Part shown: positions 35,614 to 63,201 of the stretch, one piece after another
How the letters are laid out: each line of letters opens with the position of its first letter
Numbering within the stretch: position 1 is the first letter of the stretch
NCBI GenBank assembly: GCA_964518675.1
Contig: CAZFGQ010000003.1
Coordinates: 759-64,758, forward strand
DNA: 64,000 nucleotides
From: an uncultured Spirochaetota bacterium
Lineage (GTDB): Bacteria; Spirochaetota; B62-G9; CAZFGQ01
Direction: 5' to 3'
The notes under the pieces: model-generated
The model's input: only the letters and a program-made list of their open reading frames with translations
What the model was told of the DNA's origin: nothing
Databases searched by the model: none
Made by a program: the position numbers and the translations under genes

Positions 35614-38600
35614 TTAAAACAGAAATTTTATTCCCAAATCTAATTCAAATCCAGCTGAAGGCAATAAATTCCCCTTTTCAACGGGCGGAACAATCTTTTC
35701 CTCCACCCCTATAACAGATTTCGCCGTAACATAAAAACTCAAACTATCAGAAACTGAAAAATCTGTTCTGTGCTGAAATGTAAATCTAACAGGAATGTTG
35801 CTGAAAGCGCTTGCAAGTTCTCTGTCAGTAAAAGTATAGATATTTTCGATAGTAATTTTTTCAGAGTTTTTAAAATAGTATTCCTTCTCCTGATAGGGTA
35901 AAAGTTTGAACATGAAAGTCCTATATACAGGAATTTTCCATAACCACTCAACAGAAACAGTCGATGAAAGTTTATCTTCCCAGGGTTTCTGGGGAATTTC
36001 CTCGCTGGATTCAGGCTCATCGGGTATTAATGTAAGATTGGTACTTTCTCGCTTCTGTCTACTACGCTGATAACTCCCATTCCAGCCAACAGCAAATCCC
36101 CTATCAATTTCTTTTAAATCTCGATATTTAACTGAAGTCTCAAACCTGTTTTTTAAAACCCTTACTGTATAGTCTCGCTCATGGGTATATTTTAATGAAA
36201 AATCAATATCTTTTTCGTATAATTCATCACCTCTTTTCAGGTCAACTAGTTTTTCCAATCTTCCCTCATAGCCACGCATCTGTGTATACGAACCAGAACT
36301 CCTTTCAGTTTGGCCGTAGACAGAAACCCCAAAATTGGTTGGTAAAAACCAGACATCCCTGTTTAAACTGATGTCGAGATTATATTTGTTGTAAAGTTTA
36401 TTTTTCGTGTCTCCATAATTAAACAAATTTACCGCATTGTAATCCTTTTGCCTTCCCAAAGAAGGAAACGGACTTATGTAATACAGAGGAGGCATTAGAA
36501 TTGTTTTAAATAGATTAAATAAAATCTCATTTTCTGTTTTATTATAAGGGAATTTTTTATAATCCCCCGTCATGTACCGATCCATACTTCCAGTTACTTT
36601 CAGCAATTTAAAATTAACTGGTATCTGAATGTTCAAGGTACTGGTAGCTAAAAGATCTCTTATCCTCTCATCCTCGATAAAGTTTGACTCAGAATAGGTA
36701 AACCCGATGCTGGACGTAAAACCAACCACTTCCTCCGGTATATATTCAATATTAAAACTTCCATTATCTGTACTCGAAAACAGATATGCAGATTCAAGAG
36801 AAGCCGATGGTTTTGAAAAAATATCTCCAAAACGTTTTAGATAAGAATCATACCACTGAGAATAGTTCATAACACCGGAGCCGAGAAAGTCTCTATCCCT
36901 TGAAAAACCCAGACTTGTACTGAAACTCTCTATACCATATCCTATCGAGAAACGGTTTGAATGTTCCAGTTCTCCACTCTCCGTTCTCTGCAAAATATCA
37001 GGTGTGGATGAGGTTCTTTTTCCTTCAATTCTCTGTATCCATCCCCTGGCGAGTTGCCATGTTGTCCAGAGCCCAAATGGAGGGCTGTAATTAGTGTACA
37101 ATGTAAATCTATTTTCATATTCTTTTAAGATCGAATCCCTGAAGCCGAACTGCTCAAGCTCCATCTTTGATAAACTCTTTTCTGTGAAATCATATCTGTG
37201 CCCCACAACAGGGAACCAACTACTTTCCGGTGAATATTCAATGCTGCTTGATATTACCATCCTGCTCTCACTGGGAGATTCAAACTCCTCAATATCAACT
37301 TTTTCATCTGAACTTTTTTCATTCCACAGGATGCTAGCATCTATCTTAAATGCCTTTGCAACAGTGAAACCTGATTCAAGGAGCGTATTTTTCTCACTCC
37401 ATCCCCTTCCACTTGAAAAGGAACCAGATTTTTTTTCATATTCTCCGTTCAAAAAACAATCGCCAATTATGGGAAATCCCATGATATTGAACAAGTTTCC
37501 CCTGTAACCAAGCCTCGCTCCCGTAAAATATGCCACACTTTTGTAATTCTCGGGATTTGCCAGATGGATCTCATCAACCCACATGGTAAATCCACTTCCA
37601 ATTATCCCTGAATCTGGACGGACAACAAACTTAATCTCTGTGACATGCTTCAACACATCAAGTTGGGCCGTTTCTGTAAGTGAACCTGCATCTGTATCAT
37701 TCACATATATTTTCTTTTCACCAAAAAGCTGGAGACTAACTTCATTCCAGCCAGTTACAAAACTTGCGCCCTCAATCTCAGCCTGAAGAAACTGATCATC
37801 CGTCGATTTTATCCTTATTAAAATTGAGAAATTTTGAGGGATGGATTGCCCTTCGGGAAAATAAAGATAAACTTTCATGTCCCGGTAGCCTGAAAAATCC
37901 ATCTGTCCACCAAACAACACAGAAAAGGATGCCTCTGTGGTAATATCACCAATTGCTCGTACCACCAGAGTTTTTTCAACATGACCAGTTTGGCTCCTGT
38001 ATCTTTGAGATCCATGAAGATCCTCATATATAGCTGGATAACTTTCAGAAAACCTGTTACTGTAGACCTCAGCATCTTCATCAATCGATACCTCACTTAC
38101 CGATAGAAGATCAGGGGAATTATTCTTTATTCTGGATCCCGACAACCATAGCCCGTTAATCAGAACCAAACCATTAAGGGGCTGTGAAGTTCCCGTACCT
38201 GTCAGAGTAATCCTGATCGCAGTAACATACTGAAGGATATCGCTATAATTTTGAACAATATTGTGTAGAGGCACAGCAATTGTCTGCCAGTCTGTCTCAC
38301 CTGTATTGATTTCAGCCAGGTATTGAGTTCCATCTGGTCCGGGGATAATAACACCACTCTCTGTACTATCAAGAACCCCATTACCATTTATATCTTCAGA
38401 TTCCAAAGTACCATTACTTCCACCCTCTCGATCGGTACCCAGTTTTGTTTGTTGTCCTCCTAAAGGAACGATCATAAAACCATTATCATTCACAGATTTC
38501 TCTCCATCCAGCACACCATCTCCATCGAGGTCTTCATTATAATCCTTTAAAAACTCTACATATAGCCTTACCGGTCCACCTTCAATTTCTGTAGCTTTAA

Positions 38601-40818
38601 AAAGAATGTTAAAGGTATCATAAATAGAAAAGTCCTCCGGACCTACAGGGGTAACCATTGTAACATAATCATCTTCACCACCATCCGGAATCTCATACTC
38701 CATTACAAGGGAGTTTTCACTGGAATAATCCGGGTGGTTCGATGTATTGTAAGGTCCCGCCTTCTCGCTGTAGTCAAATACCTGATCCTGTGGAATCTCC
38801 CAGCTTAAATCCTCTAGCACTTCGCCTGAAAGGACGGTGCTTTTGTAGTAGTTTTTGTATAAGAGATCTCCCCTGGTAGTTAATTGAACACCGTTGTCCT
38901 CAAGAATCTGTGATTCAGAACCTATAATCCAGCTCTCAGCTTCATTGCTTACCCGAAATATTGCTTCTGAGGACTCCATATCATCTATAATGGCTTTTCC
39001 ATGGGGGTTTGGATTGGTCAAACCCAATCCAACTCCCGCCTGAGCTTCAAAATAAGCCCCCTCTTCATCCTCATTAGCCCCTATTTTGAAACCTATCTCT
39101 GTACTGTTGTAAATATCTCGTTTACCTTCAGCACCCAATTCAGGAGCTTCCCGAGTTCCCAGAGGAGACCGGTAAAGGGTAAGATTTTTCAGATCTATAA
39201 AATCATTTGAGTAAAAAAGGCCAAACTGTCCTACCAGTCCTTTATTACCACCCCCAAAACTCGTATATCTGTATTTTATCTCTATCTCGCTTGTTGGAGT
39301 TACAACACCTTCCCCGAAGGTTACCGTGCCAAATGAATAATCCACTTCATAATCACTTTCCTTCAGAACTTTCCCATCAACTACAATTTCCACACTTCCA
39401 GGTATAACATTAAAATCGAGAAAGAAAGTATCAGTATAAAAACTATACGAAAACTCAAGTTTATTAATCGATTTATCTACAGTGGGATATGAAAGACCTC
39501 CATATACTGGATTATCCTGATCAAAAGGGTTATTCTCGGTCGTTACAGGTGACGAATAAGGGGAAACACCGGGAAAAGGTCTTGGATAAAAATTGCCAGT
39601 ACCATCCGTAAAGTTAAAAAAAACCACTCCTCTTTCAGAATCGATACTGTACTGGTCTATAATATCATCATAATTACTGTTTGGACTTGAGTTTTCTGTG
39701 TAGAGGAGTCTCACTTCAAAGCTTGAAATCCCCGTCCCCTCATATGAGGGCAGAGGATATGCATTTCTCAACTCCCAGTAGCTATTAAAAGCCCTCTTTT
39801 TTAAATACAGAAACTCCCCACTGCTATCAAAATACTGAGGGAAACTGTTGGAGTTGAAATCAACCCTTACTCCACTTTCACCAATTATTGCACCAATCCC
39901 CAGCGAAGTAGAACCAACTGCCTGTCCGCCCTTCGTATAGTAACATACAAGTTCATCTTCACTGGCCAGAGAGTTTTCAAGGTATATAAATCCAGTTGAC
40001 GGATCAAAATCATAGTCAACACCTTCTATAAGAAGTCTAAAATCTTTATTATCCAGTGTAAGATCTACAGTTGTCGTAGATGAAACATAGAGCCTGAGAG
40101 AATCCGTGTCTATATCCTTATCAGGAATGAAAAAGTATGTTGACTTTATATAGTCCACATCATAAACTTCATCAACCACATCCCGCCTGTTTCCCTTGAA
40201 TACCTTAACTCCCTCATATCCAACATCATAGCGGAGAAGTGCATTAAAATATAATTGATCCCACCCTCCCAGTGCTCTCAGCGCAAAGCTATCTGGTGAG
40301 GCTTCATCCACTTTTACATACCTTCCACCTTCAACGCCAAGATACTTATTTCCCACCGTTACTTCTTTTAAAAACTCATCCTCTTTCCCTCTGTATTCAA
40401 CAGAGTAAATATTATTTTCCTCCAGCAAGCCTTCCTCCGTTCTCTCCGAATCGTAATCAAACTCAAAATGAATTCGATCTCCAATAGTACCATCTATCAA
40501 AAGTTTTTCCAGCATGTCATATTTTAATCCCCTATCTATTCCATAGGACCCTTCTCCAACGGTAATGCCCTTTTTCAAGGGGAAAGTAAACCCATACCCA
40601 AGGTCGAGCTGAATTTGCCCTTCTATATTCAATTCAGTTTCAACAGAATAATCCTTTTTAAAATTGAATTTTTCCAATGGATTATGGAAAAAACCACCTG
40701 AATAAACTGGGAAGTAAAACGAGGCTTCTGAAGAAGGCACTATACTGGCAGGGAAAGATAAAAAAAGTGCGATGAAAATAAAAAGAGTTTTTGTTTTTGC
40801 ATATCTAAATATTTTCAC
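35614..40818 (-). CDS. Very large exported outer-membrane protein, SprA/Sov-like (T9SS translocon homologue)
   Basis: Signal peptide, colinear SprA-like blocks (IDGTIGDRIHFEFDYDSE…VEYRGKEDEFLKEVTVGN; NVIPGSVEIVVDGKVL…DYEVDYSFGTVTF; AIIDDMESS), and a beta-rich C-terminal third ending GIKFLF. Confidence 0.65.
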   Translation of the reverse strand: MKIFRYAKTKTLFIFIALFLSFPASIVPSSEASFYFPVYSGGFFHNPLEKFNFKKDYSVETELNIEGQIQLDLGYGFTFPLKKGITVGEGSYGIDRGLKYDMLEKLLIDGTIGDRIHFEFDYDSERTEEGLLEENNIYSVEYRGKEDEFLKEVTVGNKYLGVEGGRYVKVDEASPDSFALRALGGWDQLYFNALLRYDVGYEGVKVFKGNRRDVVDEVYDVDYIKSTYFFIPDKDIDTDSLRLYVSSTTTVDLTLDNKDFRLLIEGVDYDFDPSTGFIYLENSLASEDELVCYYTKGGQAVGSTSLGIGAIIGESGVRVDFNSNSFPQYFDSSGEFLYLKKRAFNSYWELRNAYPLPSYEGTGISSFEVRLLYTENSSPNSNYDDIIDQYSIDSERGVVFFNFTDGTGNFYPRPFPGVSPYSSPVTTENNPFDQDNPVYGGLSYPTVDKSINKLEFSYSFYTDTFFLDFNVIPGSVEIVVDGKVLKESDYEVDYSFGTVTFGEGVVTPTSEIEIKYRYTSFGGGNKGLVGQFGLFYSNDFIDLKNLTLYRSPLGTREAPELGAEGKRDIYNSTEIGFKIGANEDEEGAYFEAQAGVGLGLTNPNPHGKAIIDDMESSEAIFRVSNEAESWIIGSESQILEDNGVQLTTRGDLLYKNYYKSTVLSGEVLEDLSWEIPQDQVFDYSEKAGPYNTSNHPDYSSENSLVMEYEIPDGGEDDYVTMVTPVGPEDFSIYDTFNILFKATEIEGGPVRLYVEFLKDYNEDLDGDGVLDGEKSVNDNGFMIVPLGGQQTKLGTDREGGSNGTLESEDINGNGVLDSTESGVIIPGPDGTQYLAEINTGETDWQTIAVPLHNIVQNYSDILQYVTAIRITLTGTGTSQPLNGLVLINGLWLSGSRIKNNSPDLLSVSEVSIDEDAEVYSNRFSESYPAIYEDLHGSQRYRSQTGHVEKTLVVRAIGDITTEASFSVLFGGQMDFSGYRDMKVYLYFPEGQSIPQNFSILIRIKSTDDQFLQAEIEGASFVTGWNEVSLQLFGEKKIYVNDTDAGSLTETAQLDVLKHVTEIKFVVRPDSGIIGSGFTMWVDEIHLANPENYKSVAYFTGARLGYRGNLFNIMGFPIIGDCFLNGEYEKKSGSFSSGRGWSEKNTLLESGFTVAKAFKIDASILWNEKSSDEKVDIEEFESPSESRMVISSSIEYSPESSWFPVVGHRYDFTEKSLSKMELEQFGFRDSILKEYENRFTLYTNYSPPFGLWTTWQLARGWIQRIEGKRTSSTPDILQRTESGELEHSNRFSIGYGIESFSTSLGFSRDRDFLGSGVMNYSQWYDSYLKRFGDIFSKPSASLESAYLFSSTDNGSFNIEYIPEEVVGFTSSIGFTYSESNFIEDERIRDLLATSTLNIQIPVNFKLLKVTGSMDRYMTGDYKKFPYNKTENEILFNLFKTILMPPLYYISPFPSLGRQKDYNAVNLFNYGDTKNKLYNKYNLDISLNRDVWFLPTNFGVSVYGQTERSSGSYTQMRGYEGRLEKLVDLKRGDELYEKDIDFSLKYTHERDYTVRVLKNRFETSVKYRDLKEIDRGFAVGWNGSYQRSRQKRESTNLTLIPDEPESSEEIPQKPWEDKLSSTVSVEWLWKIPVYRTFMFKLLPYQEKEYYFKNSEKITIENIYTFTDRELASAFSNIPVRFTFQHRTDFSVSDSLSFYVTAKSVIGVEEKIVPPVEKGNLLPSAGFELDLGIKFLF

Positions 40819-52956: not shown

Positions 52957-55386
52957 CTATTCATAGTTTAAAAAACAGACAGGAGCTATGAGCAAAACAA
53001 CCTCATTCTCAAAGAGTCTGTATACCTGACACAGTTCAATTAATTTAACGAGTTCATCCGGAAGACTATTCTCAACCACACAGGTAACAATATCGCCCGT
53101 TTTTAAAAAACTTGAGAATGGTTTTTCACCTCTCACTCTTATTATTTCAGGTTCTTCTTCTAATCCCAAAATATTTTTCATTAATTCAATTGATCTGGCC
53201 AATCCGCCAAGTTCATCCACCAGTCCTCTCTGCCTGGCCTGCTCACCTGTCCATAGCTTTCCCTGTGCAATATTTCTCACCTCATCAATGTCCATACTCC
53301 TACCTTCAGCCACAACTCTGACAAATTTGTCATAAGTAGAACCCAGAAAATCCCTAATAATCTCTTTTTCCTCTTCAGTCATCTTCCTATAAATTGCTCC
53401 CATGTCCGAATGTTTTCCTCTCTTAATTGTTTCCCAGTTTATCCCAAGTTTTTTTGAGAGAACGGAGATGTTTGGAAAAACCGCCACAACACCAATTGAC
53501 CCTGTCAGGGTTACCGGCTCAGCAACTATCTTAGTGGCCGTTGAGCTAATATAGTAACCACCCGAAGCTGCCACACCACCCATTGATATAATCACTGGTT
53601 TTGGGTCACTTCCACCAACAGTTAATTTTATCTCTCTGGCAATTACATCCGAGGCAACCGCCGATCCCCCACCACTCGAAACGCGTATAATAATCCCTCC
53701 CACTGTTGGGTCATTCCTTGCTTTTCTGATGGCCCTAACCAGGGTTTCAGACCCAATCGAGGAGCCTTCTTTTCCCTCACCCGTATGGATTGGACCTATT
53801 GCATATATTATAGCTATACGTGAAGAAGAAGGTTTGCTCCAATCATATCTTATTTTCTCCGTAAACACATAACCACACATCTTCGTCCCAGGATAGAGAT
53901 TTTTGAGTTTATCTTTAAGTTGATCTGGATAGAGAATGCCATCTATTAATCCTTCCTCAAGAGCCCTTTCTGGCACAAGACAAGGTCCATCGTCTATTAT
54001 TTCTCTAATTGGCCTTTTTAATCTATCCTTTCTTCCAGATTCTATCATATCACACATGGAATTGTAGAGACTATCAATTACCAGATTTAATTGTGCCCTC
54101 TCTTCTTCAGTCATTCCCGACTCTGAATACATGTTGAATGAACTTTTATATGGATGACTCCTCATGTTCAGCACCTCTATACCCAGCATGTCAAGAAAAT
54201 CCTTCATATAAGGTGAAGCCATGGCAACACCAACCAGCGAGATATAACCCTGAGGTTGAAGGTAAATCTCATCGGCCACAGAAGCCGCGAGAGCATAATT
54301 CAGGTTACTCACCTCCTGATAATAGAATATGACCTTCTTTCCAGACTCCTTAAAACTTTTCAATGCCTGACTTATCTCCATATAATTCGCAAATGAAGCC
54401 CGAAAATTCTGATTCATCATCACAATCCCATATACAGACCCATCTTTTTCAAGCTTTTTAATCTCTTCAATTATCTGAAGGATATCTTTCCCCGGTTGTA
54501 TCACATTAAAATAAGAGGACTTCACAGGATTTTTTATCTCGACGACTCTTTCACCAATCTGGTAATTGATAAAGCGTTTATTTTTTTTCTTTGCCACGGA
54601 TCGAAACTCCTTACCAGATATGAAAACAAAACCACCGGCAGACTGGATTTTGGATCCATTAATGAAAATGGCCGTAGAACCTATCCTGACAAATGGAAAT
54701 GTAAAAGCTAACTCAACCCCAGCAGAGTTATCTTCCATATTCAAGCTTCCCCTGGCAAAAAATCCATCAAACAATTCTGTTTCAACTGAAAACATTGGAT
54801 TGTTAACATCTCTACCCCGCAAGGTTAAATCAATTGCTCCCGTGATTCTATTTCCAAGATAAGATGAAAAAAACAACGGTCTAAACCCAACACCAAACCG
54901 ATAAACTGGTTTATCAGAATGTAAAAACCGGGCATTAGCTCCAAGTGAAACAAAATCAGCGGGTCTTGATAGAAATGAAAGAATATAATCCGGTGTTTTC
55001 CAGGATTTTTCCCTCCAGCTTAAACCAAACCCAAAATAATTATTCAGACTAATACCAAAACCAGTACCAATACTATGAAAGTACACACCGTCTTTTCTTT
55101 CAAGGAAATACCCAAAATTGGGTATCCCTACTGAAAATGAGAAAGTATCCAGATAACTCCCAGAGATATCCCCAGAGCTTTCATTTATATAAGTGCCTGA
55201 AAAACCGAGACCAACATTATTTCCGAATCCCAGTGCTGCAGGATTGATCTTAGGAGAAACAAACCCATCCTCTGTAGCAACTGAATGCGGAGCATATGAA
55301 TAAGATTCTGCTGAAATACTGAATGAGGGTGAGATTAATAATACTAACCAGATAAAACAAATAATTTGTTTTACATTTATGCTCAT
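52957..55386 (-). CDS. sppA: Signal peptide peptidase SppA (two S49 domains) with N-terminal predicted beta-barrel extension
   Basis: RVSSGGGS, SMGGVAASGGYYI, TGSIGV, AQGKLWTG, GLVDELGG. ATG at 55386 after GGAGGT. About 270-aa beta-rich N-terminal region. Confidence 0.85.
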   Translation of the reverse strand: MSINVKQIICFIWLVLLISPSFSISAESYSYAPHSVATEDGFVSPKINPAALGFGNNVGLGFSGTYINESSGDISGSYLDTFSFSVGIPNFGYFLERKDGVYFHSIGTGFGISLNNYFGFGLSWREKSWKTPDYILSFLSRPADFVSLGANARFLHSDKPVYRFGVGFRPLFFSSYLGNRITGAIDLTLRGRDVNNPMFSVETELFDGFFARGSLNMEDNSAGVELAFTFPFVRIGSTAIFINGSKIQSAGGFVFISGKEFRSVAKKKNKRFINYQIGERVVEIKNPVKSSYFNVIQPGKDILQIIEEIKKLEKDGSVYGIVMMNQNFRASFANYMEISQALKSFKESGKKVIFYYQEVSNLNYALAASVADEIYLQPQGYISLVGVAMASPYMKDFLDMLGIEVLNMRSHPYKSSFNMYSESGMTEEERAQLNLVIDSLYNSMCDMIESGRKDRLKRPIREIIDDGPCLVPERALEEGLIDGILYPDQLKDKLKNLYPGTKMCGYVFTEKIRYDWSKPSSSRIAIIYAIGPIHTGEGKEGSSIGSETLVRAIRKARNDPTVGGIIIRVSSGGGSAVASDVIAREIKLTVGGSDPKPVIISMGGVAASGGYYISSTATKIVAEPVTLTGSIGVVAVFPNISVLSKKLGINWETIKRGKHSDMGAIYRKMTEEEKEIIRDFLGSTYDKFVRVVAEGRSMDIDEVRNIAQGKLWTGEQARQRGLVDELGGLARSIELMKNILGLEEEPEIIRVRGEKPFSSFLKTGDIVTCVVENSLPDELVKLIELCQVYRLFENEVVLLIAPVCFLNYE

Positions 55387-55551
55387 AATAACCTCCAATA
55401 TTTGGTGTACTGACAATTCCAATTATAACATATCAGATCTATAGAACAATCAGTGATTCTTAAAAGAACCAGATTTTCAACTCAAGAGGTATACCAGCCA
55501 AAAGCCCAACAGCGATTTCACTTTAGAGATTCTAAAAAGTGAAATATAATA

Positions 55552-55655: not shown

Positions 55656-56429
55656 ATGGTAAAGTCTGTCGATAGAGCAATCAGAATTCTGGAGCTTTTA
55701 AGCGAAAACAACAAAATGGGAATCACAGAAATAAGTAAAAAATTAAACCTGCCAAAGACCACAACTTTCGATATTGTCTCAACCCTCCATGAAAGAGGCA
55801 TACTGGAAAAGGACGAAGAAAATAACAGATACTTTCTCGGTCTTAAACTATTTGAACTTGGCGATGCAGCCAGAGCAAACTTTGAACTCAGAAAAATTGC
55901 AGTTCCATACCTTAAAGAATTAAACAGTAAACTAGATGAAACCGTACATCTTACGGTCCGTGACGACGATGAGGCATTGTACATTGAGTGTTTTGAATCT
56001 ACCAAGAGGTTGAGAACATACTCGGTAATTGGAGTAAGGGCACCGTTGTACTGTACAGCAGTGGGTAAAGCTCTTCTTGCGTTTTTGCCTGATGAAGAGA
56101 TAAAAAAAATTGTAAGGAAAAAGGGATTTATAAGATTCACACCCAATACAATAACCGATGAAAAAAGGCTCTTTGATGAAATAAAAAAAATAAGAGAGCT
56201 GGGTTATTCAATCGACGATGTTGAACATGAGGAAGGGGTACGATGCGTGGGGGCGCCAATCAGAGATCATACAGGTAGGGTTGTGGCATCAATAAGTGTT
56301 TCTGGCCCCACTCAAAGGGTTACAAAAAGTAAAGTACCACAGTTGGCAAAAATAGTAATGGCAACTGCTGAAGAAATATCAAGTAGACTCGGGTATAAAA
56401 AAACCAGTTTAAAAGTTGTCAGTAATTAA
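55656..56429 (+). CDS. IclR-family transcriptional regulator
   Basis: VKSVDRAIRILELL HTH, PLYCTAVGKALLA, GYSIDDVEHEEGVRCVGAPI. Confidence 0.94.
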   Translation: MVKSVDRAIRILELLSENNKMGITEISKKLNLPKTTTFDIVSTLHERGILEKDEENNRYFLGLKLFELGDAARANFELRKIAVPYLKELNSKLDETVHLTVRDDDEALYIECFESTKRLRTYSVIGVRAPLYCTAVGKALLAFLPDEEIKKIVRKKGFIRFTPNTITDEKRLFDEIKKIRELGYSIDDVEHEEGVRCVGAPIRDHTGRVVASISVSGPTQRVTKSKVPQLAKIVMATAEEISSRLGYKKTSLKVVSN

Positions 56430-56516: not shown

Positions 56517-57533
56517 ATGAAAAAGTTTAAAGTACTAACAACGTTGATCCTTACAGCAGTTTTCATCTTCACGGTACTGGGGATAGCCACTGCAGCTGAC
56601 AAAACCTATGTATTGAGATTCAACACCGTTGCGGGTCCTAACGAGCCCCAAACCCTCTCCATGAAAAAGTTTGCCGAGGTAGTTTCAGAATTAAGTGGGG
56701 GCAAAATAAAGGTAAAGGTCTTTCATTCCGGGCAACTTGCAGACCAGAAAACCGGTATTCTCGGGGTAATGAGAGGCTCACTTGAAATGACAAGCGATGC
56801 TAGCCCCTCATGGTTTTCTGATCTGGCAAACTATCCAGAGATAGCCGTACTTGAGGCAGCTTACATCTATCGCGATCTTGACCACCTCTACAGGGTTCTC
56901 ACCGGCCCATTCGGACAGAAATACTGGGACACTCTGGCCAGAAAGTCCAACATTCGGGTTCTTGATATCTGGTACCTTGGCACAAGAGAGTTGAATTTAA
57001 CCAGAAAGGCTGGCGTCGTCAGAAGACCAGAGGACCTCAAGGGCATCAAACTAAGAATGCCAAATACAGAAGCATGGCTCGATGTGGGAAGAGCACTGGG
57101 TGCAAACCCAACGCCATTGGGTTTCGGTGAAGTATATATGGCTCTAAAAACCGGAACAATAGATGGTCAGGATAATCCTCTACCAACCGACTATTCAGAG
57201 AAGTTCTGTGAGGTTACCCACTATATCGTGCTCACTGACCACGTAATAGGATACATTACCCCAATAATCAACGAGAAACTATGGCAGAGCATGCCTGAAA
57301 ACTACAGATTCTACATTAAACAAGCAATGAGGGTTGCAAGGTTCTATCAGAACGAAATGGTTCTTGAACAGGAGGCTAAACTTCTTGGTATTTTCCAGAA
57401 AGAGTATGGAATGGAAATTATTGTTCCCGACAAGAAAGCTTTTATGGAACATGCAAGAAGGTTCTACAGCCAGCCAAAGTTCGACAGAAAATGGGGAAAG
57501 GGAATGTATGCCCGTATCCAGACCATGGAGTAA
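56517..57533 (+). CDS. TRAP transporter substrate-binding protein DctP
   Basis: Signal peptide, EDLKGIKLRMP, LGANPTPLGFGEVYMALKTGTIDGQDNP. Confidence 0.92.
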   Translation: MKKFKVLTTLILTAVFIFTVLGIATAADKTYVLRFNTVAGPNEPQTLSMKKFAEVVSELSGGKIKVKVFHSGQLADQKTGILGVMRGSLEMTSDASPSWFSDLANYPEIAVLEAAYIYRDLDHLYRVLTGPFGQKYWDTLARKSNIRVLDIWYLGTRELNLTRKAGVVRRPEDLKGIKLRMPNTEAWLDVGRALGANPTPLGFGEVYMALKTGTIDGQDNPLPTDYSEKFCEVTHYIVLTDHVIGYITPIINEKLWQSMPENYRFYIKQAMRVARFYQNEMVLEQEAKLLGIFQKEYGMEIIVPDKKAFMEHARRFYSQPKFDRKWGKGMYARIQTME

Positions 57534-57668: not shown

Positions 57669-58190
57669 GTGAAAGATTCAAAGCTCACATTGAAGAAAAT
57701 ATATGATTTTCTGGAAATTCACCTGCCGAGCTATATTTTTATCCTGCTTATAATTACCATTGGCGTTGGAGTTTTCTCAAGATACGTACTAAATCATCCA
57801 ATACCTCAATTATTTGAGCTTTCGATCTATAGCTTTGTATGGGTTATATATCTTGGTGCGGCTCTTGCTAAAAGATACGATAAACACATAAGATTTGATA
57901 TACTCTACAGAAAATATTCCGAAAAAACAAGGCATGTGGTTGATATAGTTTTTGATATTATTACAAGTGTTGCATTTATACTTCTTCTAATACCAAGCGT
58001 AAGGTATACAATTATGAACTACAGTATTAAAGCTTCAGCACTGAGGATACCCTGGACATATCTTCTCATGTGTTTTCCAATTTTCATCATACTAATGCTT
58101 TTTCACATGATTACCTCCATCATTTTCAGTATTAAGTATATCTCAGGAAAAGAGGTCAGAATCGAAGAGGAGGTTCTTCCGTGGCAGTAA
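57669..58190 (+). CDS. TRAP transporter small permease DctQ
   Basis: 4 TM helices, VFSRYVLN, ELSIYSFVWVIYLGAA, HIRFD. Confidence 0.88.
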   Translation: MKDSKLTLKKIYDFLEIHLPSYIFILLIITIGVGVFSRYVLNHPIPQLFELSIYSFVWVIYLGAALAKRYDKHIRFDILYRKYSEKTRHVVDIVFDIITSVAFILLLIPSVRYTIMNYSIKASALRIPWTYLLMCFPIFIILMLFHMITSIIFSIKYISGKEVRIEEEVLPWQ

Positions 58191-59473
58191 TAGTCTGGGC
58201 ATTGGTGTTCGCGGCAGTATTTGCACTTGGATATCCAATTGCACTGGGAATGTTTGTGAGTTCAATTCTTTACCTGCTGATCTCACACATTGATCTTTTA
58301 ACAGTTATGGATTTAATGGTAATAAAGTTTGAAAACCAGTTTGTCCTGCTGGCAGTCCCGCTTTTCATATTCACGGCAAAGGTAATGAATGCTGGAAAAC
58401 TGACCGACCGATTGTTCGATTTCGCAAAGGTTATTGTTGGTCCTCTGAAAGGGGGACTTGGACATGTAAACATCGTTGCAAGTATTATATTTGCGGGGAT
58501 GTCCGGTTCCGAAATAGCAGACGTTGCGGGTTTGGGTACAGTAGAAATAAAAGCTATGAAGGATGCAGGATACGATGGGCCCTTTGCATGTGCAGTTACA
58601 TGTGCTTCAGCCACAATCGGGCCAATTATCCCACCCAGTATCCCGATGGTAATATATTCGATGTTATCCGGAGCTTCTGTGGGATACCTTTTCCTAGGAG
58701 GGATAATTCCCGGGCTTATCCTTGGTGCCACAGAAATGATACTTGTACTTATACTCTCTATAAAGAGGAACTATCCATCTGGTAAATGGGTTCCTTTCAA
58801 AGAGTTTATTAAAATTACGGCCGAGTCATTTCCAGTTATTCTGGCACCTGCAATTCTCCTTGGAGGAATATACGGAGGAATATTTACACCAACTGAAGCG
58901 GCGGGAATCGTGGGGATATACGTTGTAATCCTGAGCCTCTTTGTCTACAGATCTCTCGGCTTAAAATCACTCTACAAAGTGCTTATAGAATCGGTGGTAA
59001 GCACGGGGTTCATAAGCTTTATCGTTGCCGGTGCATTCCTGTTCGGATATGTTGTGGCAAGAGAAGAAATTCCCGCAATGATAACACAGGGCTTTGTAAA
59101 TCTCGGACTGATGCACAGCAAATGGACTGTTCTGCTTTCGCTTAATCTATTATTCCTGGCACTCGGATGTTTCATAGATGTTTCTGCAATACTTCTTATA
59201 ATAGTTCCAATTGTTCTTCCACTTGTTCAGGCGGCAGGAATCGATCTTGTTCACTTTGGTGTTGTTACGGTATTTAATCTGATGATTGCTCTGGATACAC
59301 CACCATATGGAGAAACCACATTCATAACAAGTGCAATTAGTGGTACTCCCCTGCCGGATGTACTGAGGGAGATGATCAAGTTTATAGCATTTGAATTAAT
59401 CGCACTATTTATTGTCACATATATTCCCGATACAGTACTTTGGATTCCAAGACTTGCGGGCTATCAGGGCTAA
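58181..59473 (+). CDS. TRAP transporter large permease DctM
   Basis: LAVPLFI, GGLGHVNI, SGSEIADVAGLG, IGPIIPPSIPM, GGIFTPTEAAG. Confidence 0.93.
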   Translation: MAVIVWALVFAAVFALGYPIALGMFVSSILYLLISHIDLLTVMDLMVIKFENQFVLLAVPLFIFTAKVMNAGKLTDRLFDFAKVIVGPLKGGLGHVNIVASIIFAGMSGSEIADVAGLGTVEIKAMKDAGYDGPFACAVTCASATIGPIIPPSIPMVIYSMLSGASVGYLFLGGIIPGLILGATEMILVLILSIKRNYPSGKWVPFKEFIKITAESFPVILAPAILLGGIYGGIFTPTEAAGIVGIYVVILSLFVYRSLGLKSLYKVLIESVVSTGFISFIVAGAFLFGYVVAREEIPAMITQGFVNLGLMHSKWTVLLSLNLLFLALGCFIDVSAILLIIVPIVLPLVQAAGIDLVHFGVVTVFNLMIALDTPPYGETTFITSAISGTPLPDVLREMIKFIAFELIALFIVTYIPDTVLWIPRLAGYQG

Positions 59474-59525: not shown

Positions 59526-60767
59526 ATGAACACAATTGATGAAAAGTTTATCGAGAGTTTATATCAAGACCTGACTCCCGTTACCCGGAACCGGGTTGAT
59601 GATACAGTATCAAAAATTGTAAAAATAAAAGAAAAAGGGCAAAAAGTTGTTGTTATGATGGGAAGTGGACCCAATATTCACGAAGGAGTTACCACCCTTG
59701 TTTCAGAGCTGATAAAAAAACATATAATAGATGGAGTCATTACAAGCTCAGCTGTGATAGCCCATGAAATGGCCGGTAGCCTTGATAGAGTAAAAAGGGT
59801 AAATGGAATTGAACTGGGGATCAACAGTGGTATTTTACCCCGGGGCGATATTTTTGAAATAACCCTAATGGATGAAGATACACTGAAGAAAATTCAGGAG
59901 GAGATGATTATCGACAATGAGCTGATAAAAAAAGCGCTTACCATGCCAGGAAACTCTATTATAAAAGCTGCGGGTAATATGGCATATCCTATGGGTTTAA
60001 GGACTGAAAAATTAGCAGTAGAAGTAGAACTCATTTCAAAAATCACCGGCAAACCTTTTGAATACATAGCTGGACTTGGAGCTGATAACAGAACAATGAT
60101 AGGAGCCGGAGCCCAGAACAATGTTCCTGTGATAGTCTCTGTGCCACAGCTTGTGGGAGGAGGAATGGTAGGTCTGTGTATTGCCGATAGCATACCAATA
60201 AAAGAAAGGTCAAAAGCTCTTGCTGATCTTTTGGAAAGTGCAACCCTCATAATAGAATCTGCTGTTGCTCTAACACAGGAAATACACGATGGACCTTTTG
60301 AGACATACACGGGTCATGGTATATGGTCTGCATGGACCGGTATAAAAACCTATTCACTCAAAAACAAAAGCATAGTAAGAATTGATCTCGATCCAAATCT
60401 TGAAAAGGCATGGGAAGCTGAAAAGAAAGACAGAGCGGTCCAGGAGGCAGTTGATAGGGGACTGCCAAAAACAAAGATGCTAAAAGTCCCATTCAGAATG
60501 GAAATGTCAGGCTTCGCAAGGCTTGAGGATAGTATACCAATAGTCGGGGACATTGGGGTAATATGGCCCATAATAGCCCTTAAGGTTTCAAAAGCTTTAA
60601 ATGTGCAACTTGACTTTATATCTTATCCGCAGGAAAGTGAACCCGGCAAAGAAATGAGAGAATGGATTGTCAAAGAAGTAAAGATCCTCGACAGAAATCT
60701 GATGATAGAAAAAGCAACTGGAGGAAAGACATACGCCGCTGAAATCTCCAAATTAATTGAAACATAA
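59526..60767 (+). CDS. Hypothetical protein, deoxyhypusine-synthase-like fold suspected
   Basis: KVVVMMGSGPNIHEGVTTLVSELIKKHIIDGVITSSAVIAHEMAG and GAGAQNNVPVIVSVP resemble DHS-like NAD-binding segments. ATG at 59526 after AAAGGGGTGA. Confidence 0.45.
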   Translation: MNTIDEKFIESLYQDLTPVTRNRVDDTVSKIVKIKEKGQKVVVMMGSGPNIHEGVTTLVSELIKKHIIDGVITSSAVIAHEMAGSLDRVKRVNGIELGINSGILPRGDIFEITLMDEDTLKKIQEEMIIDNELIKKALTMPGNSIIKAAGNMAYPMGLRTEKLAVEVELISKITGKPFEYIAGLGADNRTMIGAGAQNNVPVIVSVPQLVGGGMVGLCIADSIPIKERSKALADLLESATLIIESAVALTQEIHDGPFETYTGHGIWSAWTGIKTYSLKNKSIVRIDLDPNLEKAWEAEKKDRAVQEAVDRGLPKTKMLKVPFRMEMSGFARLEDSIPIVGDIGVIWPIIALKVSKALNVQLDFISYPQESEPGKEMREWIVKEVKILDRNLMIEKATGGKTYAAEISKLIET

Positions 60768-60804: not shown

Positions 60805-61545
60805 ATGAGAGTTATAGGAGTAATACCAGCACGCTATCATTCAACTCGCCTTGAGGGAAAACCTTTAAAAGATATAAATGGCAAACCAATGGTTCAATGG
60901 GTGTATGAGGGAGTTATAAAATCAAAGATTCTGGATGATGTTATAGTGGCAACCGACGATGAGAGGATAATAGATATAGTCAAGAGCTTTAACGGCAAAG
61001 CGGTTATGACTTCAAAGGAACATGCTTCTGGAACAGACAGGGTAGCAGAAGTTGCGGAATCGATTGATGCGGATATCATCGTGAACATCCAGGGAGACGA
61101 GCCATTTGTCAACCCAGGAATGATAGATGAAGTGGCAAAACCCCTTATTGATGATCCTGAGATTATGATGGGAACCCTGATGCATCCCATAAAAAACGAA
61201 GCAGACTATGACAACCCAAATGTAGTTAAGGTCGTATGCGATAAATCAGGCTTTGCTCTGTATTTTTCAAGATCTCTCATACCTTATCCAAGACACAGAG
61301 AGGGTTTTGTGGCATATGAGCATATTGGTATATACTCTTACAGAAAAGATTTCCTGCTGATGCTAAGAAACCTGGAACAAACGTATCTTGAAAAAATAGA
61401 ATCTCTTGAACAGCTGAGAGTTCTTGAAAATGGTTATAAAATTAAAGTTGTTGAAACAAAACAGGAATACATACCTTTAAGTGTTGATACCGCAGAAGAC
61501 CTTGAAAAAGCACGTATTTTTGCAAAATCCCTTAAAGAAAGGTAA
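60805..61545 (+). CDS. kdsB: 3-deoxy-manno-octulosonate cytidylyltransferase (CMP-KDO synthetase)
   Basis: IPARYHSTRLEGKPL, SGTDRVAE, NIQGDEP, LYFSRSLIPY, HIGIYSYR, ESLEQLRVLENG. Confidence 0.9.
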   Translation: MRVIGVIPARYHSTRLEGKPLKDINGKPMVQWVYEGVIKSKILDDVIVATDDERIIDIVKSFNGKAVMTSKEHASGTDRVAEVAESIDADIIVNIQGDEPFVNPGMIDEVAKPLIDDPEIMMGTLMHPIKNEADYDNPNVVKVVCDKSGFALYFSRSLIPYPRHREGFVAYEHIGIYSYRKDFLLMLRNLEQTYLEKIESLEQLRVLENGYKIKVVETKQEYIPLSVDTAEDLEKARIFAKSLKER

Positions 61546-61566: not shown

Positions 61567-62457
61567 ATGGGAAACTGGAACGGTGTAATATCCGCAATCA
61601 TAACTCCCATGAAAGAAGATGGCAGTGCTATAGATACCGGGCCTGTAAAAGATTACTGTGACTTTATAATAGATAAAGGTGTAAGCGGGATATTTGCTAT
61701 GGGAACTACCGGTGAAGGGCCACTTCTTTCACTGGAAGAGAAAAAAATTATATCAAAAAAAATAGTGGATTCCGTAAATGGAAGAACCAGGGTCATTATT
61801 CAGAGTGGATGCATTACAACAGAAGAAACAATTCAGTTAACAAGATACTCAAAAGACATCGGAGCCGATGCAGCGGGAATACTTATTCCATATTATTATA
61901 ATCTTGACGAAGAGGCTATCTTTGAACACTTTGCACGGGTAGCAGAAGCTGTACCAGATTTTCCAATCTTCATATACAATATCCCACAGTGCACCTGCAA
62001 TAATCTAAGTGTGAAATTATTTGAAAGGCTAATCAATGAAATCGATACTATTGCAGGAATTAAAACGAGCAATCCTGATATATTTCAGATTATCGGTTTC
62101 GTTCGGGCTGCGAAAAATAAATGCTCGGTGTTTATCGGCAGCGATGGCCTGGTTCTTGCTGGACTGTCCTCTGGGGCGAGCGGCGTAGTGTCGGGAAATG
62201 CTTCTGTATTTCCGGAACCATTGATAGATCTGTATAATGCATTCAACCGGGGTGAAAGAGAGAAGTGCATCGAATATCAGCAACTCGTAGATAAAATGAG
62301 AACGGCTCTTGGTGACGGATACTATATCGATGCCTATAAAAAAACCCTTTCTATTCTGGGAATAGAGGTTGGGAAGCCCAGAAAACCGAACAGAGAACTT
62401 ACTAAAGAAGAGTTCGAGAGACTAAGGAAATCCCTATCAGAACTGGGATTCCTTTAA
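61567..62457 (+). CDS. DapA/NanA-family class I aldolase
   Basis: MGTTGEG, FIYNIP (catalytic Tyr), GIKTS (Schiff-base Lys). Confidence 0.88.
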   Translation: MGNWNGVISAIITPMKEDGSAIDTGPVKDYCDFIIDKGVSGIFAMGTTGEGPLLSLEEKKIISKKIVDSVNGRTRVIIQSGCITTEETIQLTRYSKDIGADAAGILIPYYYNLDEEAIFEHFARVAEAVPDFPIFIYNIPQCTCNNLSVKLFERLINEIDTIAGIKTSNPDIFQIIGFVRAAKNKCSVFIGSDGLVLAGLSSGASGVVSGNASVFPEPLIDLYNAFNRGEREKCIEYQQLVDKMRTALGDGYYIDAYKKTLSILGIEVGKPRKPNRELTKEEFERLRKSLSELGFL

Positions 62458-63201
62458 CAAAGGGATTTCATATGTACAGGGCAATCCCACAACACACTTG
62501 CCACAGACACTTGGTGAACCAAGATCGGTATAGAGTTCTCCATTTTCAAGGCACCTCTGCCAGCAACTAAACCTGTTAAATCCTGAAACCCTGAGGGAAT
62601 CATTTACACATTTCTCAACACAAACAGTGCAACTCTCATCCCTCTTATAAAGACAATACTCATCATCATCCCTTGGTGAAGGTTGCATTTCAAGATCTAT
62701 TATAATTGAACTTGTTCTTCCGGCACATCCAGATTTAGTTATCAGCATATTATTTAGTCCGAATTTACCTATACCAGCAATATATCCTGCATGTCTATGT
62801 GACCACCTGCTGACAAGTTTTTCTCTATCAAAATTATGTGTTGGAAGGATAACAGCACACTTAATATTTTTCTTTCTGAAGAACTCTTTCAGCATCTCCG
62901 AAATTTCAACAAGCAACTGGTTCGTTGCGATATAGGAATAAGCCCAGAATCTTGAAGCGGAATTTCCCAAGAGGTTGCTTTCCACAACTCTTTTATCAAA
63001 TGGTATGAAGAAAACGACAACTGTTTTTGCTTCTGGAAGAAGTTCCTCCGGAAGAAAATGACCGGGGTAGGTAACCTCTCTCAGTCTTTTAAAAAGTGAA
63101 TCAGATGCATCGGCATAACCCACAATGGGCTCACGCCATAAACCTTCACGGTTTTTACTTCTCACAAAATCTACTATAAGATTTCTGATTTTTTCTTCCA
63201 C
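62437..63201 (-). CDS. QueG-like (epoxyqueuosine reductase family) Fe-S protein
   Basis: KTVVVFFIPF, WSHRHAGYIAGIGKFGLNNMLIT, C-terminal CxxCxxxC and CGKC…PC clusters. Confidence 0.72.
   Translation of the reverse strand: MEEKIRNLIVDFVRSKNREGLWREPIVGYADASDSLFKRLREVTYPGHFLPEELLPEAKTVVVFFIPFDKRVVESNLLGNSASRFWAYSYIATNQLLVEISEMLKEFFRKKNIKCAVILPTHNFDREKLVSRWSHRHAGYIAGIGKFGLNNMLITKSGCAGRTSSIIIDLEMQPSPRDDDEYCLYKRDESCTVCVEKCVNDSLRVSGFNRFSCWQRCLENGELYTDLGSPSVCGKCVVGLPCTYEIPLLKESQF

Follow-up and report, generated by a model that had tools for sequence, protein, structure and literature searches.

3-Deoxy-manno-octulosonate (Kdo) is a hallmark sugar of lipopolysaccharide (LPS) and is also abundant in pectin (rhamnogalacturonan II) and in green-algal walls. 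The classical Kdo pathway has five steps, KdsD-KdsA-KdsC-KdsB-WaaA, of which KdsB is the cytidine monophosphate (CMP)-Kdo synthetase. Sialic acids are scavenged by systems that combine a SiaPQM transporter of the tripartite ATP-independent periplasmic (TRAP) type with NanA, NeuA/SiaB, a sialidase and YhcH. In the literature that we found, Kdo salvage is mentioned only as uptake followed by KdsB, and Kdo aldolase (EC 4.1.2.23) only as an unassigned activity. Here we describe a gene from an uncultured Spirochaetota bacterium that lies among parts of both kinds of system. It is located in a 64,000-nucleotide stretch of contig CAZFGQ010000003.1, which we refer to as the window, and encodes a 413-amino-acid protein (59526-60767, + strand) that we call X. 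A first-pass annotation, made from the letters and open reading frames (ORFs) of the window, had described X as an orphan enzyme resembling deoxyhypusine synthase (DHS), embedded in a sugar-acid operon between dctM and kdsB. This placement proved correct, as dctM ends at 59473 and an equivalog-level kdsB, preceded by a TAGGAGG ribosome-binding site, begins at 60805. Our analysis indicates that X is very probably a KdsB-partner enzyme of Kdo metabolism and not a DHS.

A full-text literature search returned no paper that deals with the X family, with genes of Kdo catabolism or with the presence of KdsB in bacteria lacking LPS. The fold of X is known, while the X family, its obligate pairing with KdsB and the occurrence of KdsB in Kdo-less bacteria are, as far as we found, undescribed.

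Translation of the X gene gave one terminal stop and no internal one. It recovered both segments quoted in the first-pass annotation: GSGPNIHEG...HEMAG at residues 46-84 and GAGAQNNVPVIVSVP at residues 193-207. The ATG at 59526 is preceded by a purine-rich, Shine-Dalgarno-like AAAGGGG stretch; a longer frame from a TTG at 59412 would overlap the end of dctM. The gene is real. Identity to the closest homologue is 98% (E 1e-259), and thousands more align over the full length at 56-82%.

Pairing of X with KdsB

To describe the surroundings of X we called ORFs in 84 loci carrying the gene and clustered them. KdsB was the most frequent neighbour family after X itself. Its position was re-checked by tblastn in 80 loci, which avoids masking by shadow ORFs. 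KdsB was the immediate same-strand neighbour of X in 54 of these loci (28 downstream and 26 upstream) and was one gene away in five, and six loci were truncated. At the level of genomes, KdsB exceeded its curated cut-off in all 50 X-positive genomes, compared to 4 of the 14 control genomes. The sugar-acid context proposed in the first-pass annotation is thereby specified, with neighbours belonging to Kdo chemistry and a link to KdsB far stronger than that annotation could see.

Every catalytic motif was invariant in 34 X-adjacent KdsBs, which were 47-71% identical across phyla. In a phylogenetic tree that combined these 34 sequences with 20 further KdsBs of X-carrying genomes, not adjacent to X, 11 of the latter stood in a supported clade of their own, and the other main group held 32 of the 34 X-adjacent ones. 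We compared a tree of X with a tree of the adjacent KdsBs, both drawn from the same 34 loci. The two trees contained the same cross-phylum groups, with support of at least 99% in both. These included a 12-member clade (99% in both trees) of Bacteroidota, Planctomycetota, Ignavibacteria, Chlorobiota, Victivallales and 'Deferribacteres', as well as a Chloroflexota clade and a Synergistota clade. A TRAP-type group united the window with Spirochaetota, Aerophobetes and one Thermodesulfobacteriota genome. The agreement of the trees shows that the pair evolves and moves as a unit, and that the X-KdsB module moves horizontally between phyla. On one 3.7-kb contig, BNR_2, X and KdsB were called as a single protein of 885 amino acids, a single case that could be an artefact of gene calling. 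A complex prediction for KdsB and X scored 0.00, which carries no weight either way.

Many of the genomes that carry the pair lack the genes that normally accompany KdsB. WaaA was not found in 20 of the 50 X-positive genomes and LpxC was not found in 15, and KdsA was not over its cut-off in 19 of the 20 WaaA-negative genomes. When the window's own genome is added to these 20, KpsC/KpsS-type transferases were not found in 17 of the 21; weak KpsC/KpsS matches of 28-36 bits occurred in four Chloroflexota. In the window's genome, which is 94.5% complete, neither KdsA, KdsC, KdsD nor WaaA was over its cut-off. LpxC is present there (298.9 bits), and the copy beside X is the only KdsB above the cut-off. 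In several Bacteroidota, too, the X-adjacent KdsB is the sole copy. The missing Kdo markers suggest that in many hosts KdsB can act only on imported sugar and that its product has no known consumer. Since KdsB is unexpected in bacteria without KdsA, WaaA and often LpxC, either CMP-Kdo has a new use or nucleotide activation serves catabolism. The X-KdsB pair in bacteria that neither make Kdo nor use it for LPS thus points to an undescribed step in Kdo handling.

LpxC without WaaA was also seen in three related Spirochaetota genomes and in two Aerophobetes genomes. The window's genome and these others may have a lipid A pathway without a canonical Kdo transferase.

The X family and its fold

X is not an orphan, contrary to its first description. 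At the 90% identity level, it matched more than 3,800 clusters with E ≤1e-3, and the top 120 homologues were 59-98% identical over their full length. Their source names are 'hypothetical' or 'deoxyhypusine synthase', and no Pfam or NCBIfam model fits the family. Among the representatives at 50% identity in a search of 1.84 billion proteins there were 170 matches, all within the X family and mostly fragments. X is encoded in at least 588 loci of one-genome-per-species contigs, and thus in at least 588 species, from more than 15 phyla, with identities of 56-70%. According to record titles, the hosts include Spirochaetota, Aerophobetes, Atribacteria, Thermodesulfobacteriota, Synergistota, Chloroflexota, Bacteroidota, Ignavibacteria/Chlorobiota, Planctomycetota, Verrucomicrobiota/Victivallales, KSB1/Calditrichota, Nitrospirales and Bacillota. 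We took all taxon labels from record titles, and some labels of metagenome-assembled genomes (MAGs) look unreliable, for example those of loci L019 (Bacillus sp.) and L053 (Bifidobacteriaceae). The 4.8-Mb 'Bifidobacteriaceae' bin (L053/G036) was not counted as monoderm because it has LpxC and WaaA matches. Within the window's own phylum X is sporadic, occurring in 7 of 301 sampled genomes, all of one order.

The most distant full-length relatives of X (P0127 and P0144; L103:1682-2299 and L104:8215-9192) are 35-39% identical to it, and their genes are followed by one for an SDR epimerase instead of KdsB. By eye, the L103 relative has an HldD-like N-terminus. These proteins may represent a sister subfamily that has a nucleotide-sugar partner other than KdsB.

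The resemblance to DHS that the first-pass annotation had noted holds at the level of fold. An AlphaFold2 model built from 32 homologues was confident (pLDDT 87.8, pTM 0.90), with low confidence at residues ~310-332, an invariant, flexible loop rich in Lys and Arg. Foldseek matched the model to LOR/SDH (3c2q), archaeal and human DHS and ArgZ/AgrE, giving the DHS fold a probability of 1.00; the check named in the first-pass annotation thus returned a DHS-type fold and no different one. In a VIA-align comparison covering 48,161 chains, the best match was the C-terminal domain of AgrE (6lrf_A; Z 17.3, root-mean-square deviation 3.0, 218 residues). DHS followed (8put_A; Z 16.4, deviation 3.8, 259 of 312 residues), then LOR/SDH-like 3c2q (Z 16.2) and other DHS entries (Z 15-16). 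Sirtuins were the next structural group, with Z of at most 11.7, and neither Foldseek nor VIA-align matched X to a glycosyltransferase fold. These scores place X in the DHS/AgrE-C/LOR-SDH branch of the DHS-like fold.

At the level of sequence, the resemblance is marginal. Pfam DS (PF01916) matched X residues 27-88 (profile positions 19-80 of 288) with E 4.5e-4 and 20 bits, under its cut-off of 27. TIGR00321 reached 25.4 bits of a required 304 (E 8e-6) over the N-terminal 60-70 residues, and the NCBIfam GSU2086 family reached 28 bits with a cut-off of 250. All of these sub-threshold profile matches are confined to the first ~90 residues of X. Against PDB sequences, phmmer and profile searches returned only matches with E 0.1-0.3. 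As a reference for DHS we aligned nine genuine DS-family proteins encoded in bacterial genomes that carry X. The hhalign comparison of X with these nine gave a probability of 1.4% and paired only X residues 41-221. In this alignment the GSGPNIHEG loop of X corresponds to the first nucleotide loop of DHS and TSSAxxxHE to the second, while the NAD-contacting Asp of DHS (PAFSD) is a hydrophobic residue in X.

The residues that define the chemistry of DHS are missing from X. The SWGK/WGK motif, which holds the catalytic imine-forming lysine, and GGGxPKNF, which provides an NAD contact and the catalytic His region, were each absent from all 32 X sequences and present in all nine genuine DHS homologues. 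The catalytic lysine, whose conservation had been put forward as a check, is therefore not conserved. By eye, the strand corresponding to that of GGGxPKNF is followed in X by an invariant ES[GA]VALTQEIHDG. Conservation of the NAD site is divided: the two N-terminal loops and the Asp of the last strand are kept, whereas GGG and the equivalent of Asp238 are changed. Judged from its sequence, X appears to resemble the DHS NAD site only in the two N-terminal phosphate/ribose loops and this Asp. Of the 50 carrier genomes, 20 also have genuine DS genes, and polyamine, eIF5A or EF-P genes were not among the recurrent neighbours in the 84-locus census. The suggestion in the first-pass annotation that X does not perform polyamine transfer agrees with all of these results. 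We conclude that X grew out of the DHS/AgrE-C/LOR-SDH branch and that hypusine chemistry was lost.

Instead, X has strong conservation of its own. Mean column identity across phyla was 61% in the 32 sequences, which share 51 invariant polar residues, including His/Glu/Asp pairs. The invariant motifs peculiar to X include IIKAAGNMAYP, ESxVALTQEIHDGPFE, GHGIWSAW, RIDLDPN and GLPKTK...PFRMEMSGFxRLE. This pattern suggests that X is an enzyme with a complex active site.

Both of its closest structural relatives differ from X in sequence or architecture. X and ArgZ share the motifs 'IHxG' and 'AxxxH[DE]' in the two N-terminal loops of their alignment, and the entry title of 6lrg describes the AgrE domain as binding NAD+ with ornithine. 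The ArgZ/AgrE C-terminal domain (PF21570; 6juy, 6lrf, 6lrg) is fused to an arginine dihydrolase and belongs to an amino-acid context, whereas X is a stand-alone protein of ~400 amino acids in all homologues listed and belongs to a sugar-acid context. X scored 17.1 bits against ArgZ-like_C_2nd (PF21570), under the cut-off of 27, and thus falls outside that family. DHS (PF01916, TIGR00321; 8put, 7cmc, 1dhs) has the same overall fold, and its nucleotide-binding loops (GSGPN..., TSSA...HE) and VPV strand can be aligned with X. By eye, the two also share a C-terminal strand in which an invariant Asp precedes a Pro-hydrophobic pair. However, X and DHS are only ~11-16% identical, and X has ~60-100 extra residues, in an insertion around 86-175 and in a C-terminal helical part.

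Operon contexts of X

The window operon has the order iclR-dctPQM-X-kdsB-DHDPS-family aldolase, all on one strand (+). Its first gene (55656-56429) encodes an IclR-family regulator (Pfam IclR_C 1.3e-59, HTH_IclR 2.6e-15) that is KdgR/BhcR-like in NCBIfam, under the equivalog cut-offs; an IclR gene recurs in nine X loci. The TRAP solute-binding protein DctP (56517-57533; Pfam DctP 6.4e-68) is of the SiaP-like, ulosonic-acid type and is 68-79% identical to the DctPs of other X loci. Its best solved relatives are 4pf6 (1.3e-49), putatively a Kdo complex, and then the sialic-acid binder SiaP (1e-48 to 1e-40). These similarities place it among ulosonic-acid receptors; its predicted structure model was poor (pLDDT 55.5). 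The small and large TRAP membrane subunits follow as DctQ (57669-58190; Pfam DctQ 2.3e-24) and DctM (58181-59473; Pfam DctM 4.2e-98). Downstream of X, which is cytoplasmic, lies KdsB (3-deoxy-manno-octulosonate cytidylyltransferase, 60805-61545), with 242.5 bits to TIGR00466 (cut-off 155.2) and 325 bits to NF003952. The operon thus contains the equivalog-quality CMP-Kdo synthetase expected of Kdo scavenging. The last gene (61567-62457; Pfam DHDPS 2.4e-60) encodes a class I aldolase-type enzyme of the DHDPS/NanA family, a candidate Kdo aldolase. It fell under every NCBIfam equivalog cut-off (DapA, NanA, KDG aldolase and HpaI), and its specificity is therefore left unassigned.

Other X loci are assembled from similar parts. 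A DHDPS-family aldolase homologue occurs in 26-31 of ~80 loci, BNR_2 sialidase-like proteins in 27, SSF symporters in 16 and TRAP transporters in ~15, and ABC systems are found as well. Accessory neighbours are GFO/IDH/MocA oxidoreductases, SDR epimerases, AP_endonuc_2 isomerases, SIS proteins, PfkB kinases and YhcH, and the recurring regulators are of the IclR, LacI, DeoR and hybrid two-component types. Signal or lipoprotein leaders are present on the BNR_2 proteins of Bacteroidota and Planctomycetota loci, which fits extracellular release of monosaccharides, and absent from those of ABC-type loci, which fits import of oligosaccharides. Five Synergistota genomes have a different arrangement, lpxB-msbA-lpxK-kdsA-kdsD-waaA-X-kdsB-(ELM1-like)-rhodanese, and WaaA paralogues precede X in diderm Firmicutes-type bins. 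The neighbourhood of homologues, also listed for checking in the first-pass annotation, is accordingly made up of KdsB, DHDPS, BNR_2, transporters and WaaA.

Several less frequent neighbour families were also observed. A protein of the ELM1/Mito_fiss_Elm1 family, a putative glycosyltransferase, stands directly beside X or KdsB in six loci (cluster c22; L054, L060, L063, L075, L082 and L085) from Synergistota and two unclassified bins, and is a candidate additional Kdo-related transferase. Two families of ~390-400 amino acids have no Pfam match. One (c24, e.g. L017:3729-4931) lies beside a GFO/IDH/MocA oxidoreductase and upstream of TRAP genes in Spirochaetota; the other (c23, e.g. L076:5600-6766) lies beside the aldolase in Planctomycetota and is also found in the TRAP-type loci L013 and L015. 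Both may be additional pathway enzymes. A nucleoside diphosphate kinase gene (c45), found in L014, L017 and L055, could relate to CTP regeneration.

Around the window operon, a 254-amino-acid ORF without Pfam or NCBIfam match (62437-63201, -) and a PCC-domain protein (PF03479; 63286-63732, -) are convergent with the operon end. Just upstream of the operon lies an unusually long SppA-type peptidase S49 of 821 amino acids with two S49 stretches (52957-55422, -). The largest ORF in its part of the window encodes 1734 amino acids (35614-40818, -).

Proposed role of X and comparison with known systems

We propose that the X-KdsB module plugs into two kinds of loci: those that would harvest Kdo-type sugar acids, in which a BNR_2 sialidase-like protein and a DHDPS-family aldolase accompany an importer of the TRAP, ABC or SSF type, and the Kdo/lipid A operon. 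In the window, a sugar acid would be imported by the TRAP system and activated by KdsB with CTP. X would most likely bind the nucleotide of CMP-Kdo in its retained nucleotide cleft and transform or consume the compound, and the aldolase would split the resulting or the free 2-keto-3-deoxy acid into pyruvate and an aldose. We infer catalysis by X, CMP-Kdo as its substrate and the chemistry involved alike; NAD, CMP and CTP are putative ligands, and the deacylation, redox or isomerase roles suggested in the first-pass annotation are guesses. We read X as a user of CMP-Kdo because it is the sole uncharacterised enzyme always found with KdsB, because the two trees match and because the nucleotide-binding fold is kept. 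That X acts on CMP-Kdo seems to us slightly short of an even chance. The combined explanation that we consider best, a KdsB-partner enzyme of a new family acting most likely on CMP-Kdo, has in our judgement an even chance of being right.

The Leloir pathway, where nucleotide activation of a sugar permits its conversion, offers an analogy. LPS-less bacteria (Chloroflexota and many Spirochaetota) and fermenters of other phyla may break down scavenged Kdo in a similar manner, with KdsB making CMP-Kdo and X converting this nucleotide sugar itself. The conversion might, for example, be an epimerisation by transient oxidation, so that ahead of the aldol cleavage the D-arabinose moiety would become a pentose used in central metabolism. 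X may also feed modified Kdo to the dedicated WaaA paralogue of Synergistota and diderm Firmicutes. We offer this Leloir-like breakdown tentatively and regard it as rather unlikely in this particular form.

Several points weigh against X as a CMP-Kdo user. Of the 80 re-checked loci, 15 had no KdsB within 10 kb, and the GGG loop and Asp238 equivalent of DHS are replaced in X. CTP activation is expensive for a fermenting organism, and a CMP-sugar hydrolase or recycling step is not evident. As Kdo could be split by a simple aldolase, a catabolic need for CMP-Kdo is unexplained. Kdo is itself a putative identity for the imported sugar, and CMP-Kdo could in fact be consumed elsewhere, by a Kdo transferase that has escaped recognition. 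Finally, the MAGs in which genes were scored as absent are of unknown completeness, although incompleteness does not easily explain why several independent markers are missing in ~20 genomes that retain KdsB.

X might also act before KdsB, on free Kdo. KdsB prefers the beta-pyranose anomer of Kdo, and an anomerase, ring-form isomerase or epimerase could supply this minor form. The module would then serve salvage, with CMP-Kdo passing to WaaA or an unrecognised glycosyltransferase and the aldolase trimming the excess, as in the sialic acid scavenging of Haemophilus. Such a role fits both types of context, and the gene orders BNR_2-X-KdsB and TRAP-X-KdsB put X between release or import and activation. 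It also agrees with the several Bacteroidota whose sole KdsB, next to X, must serve LPS, and with the YhcH-type sialic-acid accessory proteins that recur nearby. We nevertheless find it unlikely. It needs an unrecognised CMP-Kdo consumer in ~20 genomes without WaaA, KdsA and mostly KpsC/S, no such enzyme is needed by bacteria that have the classical pathway, and ~400 amino acids with ~50 invariant polar residues exceed the needs of known mutarotases. The missing consumer in WaaA-less hosts would be supplied if X itself were a new CMP-Kdo-dependent transferase with a non-LPS acceptor, or a hydrolase, holding the CMP-sugar donor in its Rossmann-like cleft. The invariant Asp-x-Asp and Lys/Arg clusters of X and its location next to paralogues of WaaA in Synergistota and diderm Firmicutes are in line with this. 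However, the lack of a glycosyltransferase fold among the structural matches, the cytoplasmic, soluble nature of X without membrane- or acceptor-related neighbours, and the substrate-inducible uptake/aldolase operons, which suit catabolism better, make a transferase or hydrolase quite improbable.

Two further explanations can largely be set aside. X could substitute for a missing KdsA, KdsC or KdsD, as its position inside the Synergistota kds operon and the absence of all three from the window's genome might suggest. Yet loci that import a ready-made sugar acid need none of those steps, and all five Synergistota genomes with waaA-X-kdsB have KdsA, KdsC and KdsD over their cut-offs. X therefore replaces none of them there, and we consider a substitute role very improbable. 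That X is a true polyamine enzyme of the deoxyhypusine/homospermidine synthase type, next to kdsB by chance, would account for its fold, its weak N-terminal Pfam DS and TIGR00321 matches and the name 'deoxyhypusine synthase' of some homologues. It is contradicted by the sub-threshold scores, the loss of both motifs in 32 of 32 sequences, the low hhalign probability, the genuine DS genes in 20 of 50 genomes and the lack of recurrent polyamine, eIF5A or EF-P neighbours, and is almost certainly wrong.

X as a KdsB-partner enzyme is a conserved, uncharacterised protein at the centre of a CMP-Kdo puzzle, and one that is easy to express and assay. Solving its reaction would assign a function to thousands of genes and add a new activity to the DHS-like fold. 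A new Kdo derivative could come to light as well, or a carbon-cycling route that operates in anoxic sediments, in guts and in digesters.

Compared to the systems described to date, X loci share KdsB with the classical Kdo pathway, and in Synergistota X lies inside the operon of this pathway, while X is none of its five steps. The logic of X loci is that of sialic acid scavenging, and the parts are homologous: a SiaP-like solute-binding protein, a NanA-family aldolase, a CMP-ulosonate synthetase of the same Pfam family, BNR proteins and YhcH. To our knowledge, sialic acid systems have no counterpart of X as an obligate enzyme, and many X hosts differ from them in being without a known acceptor pathway. 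The activating enzyme also sets the two apart, since in X loci it is of the KdsB type and not of the NeuA type, and is encoded inside the uptake operon.

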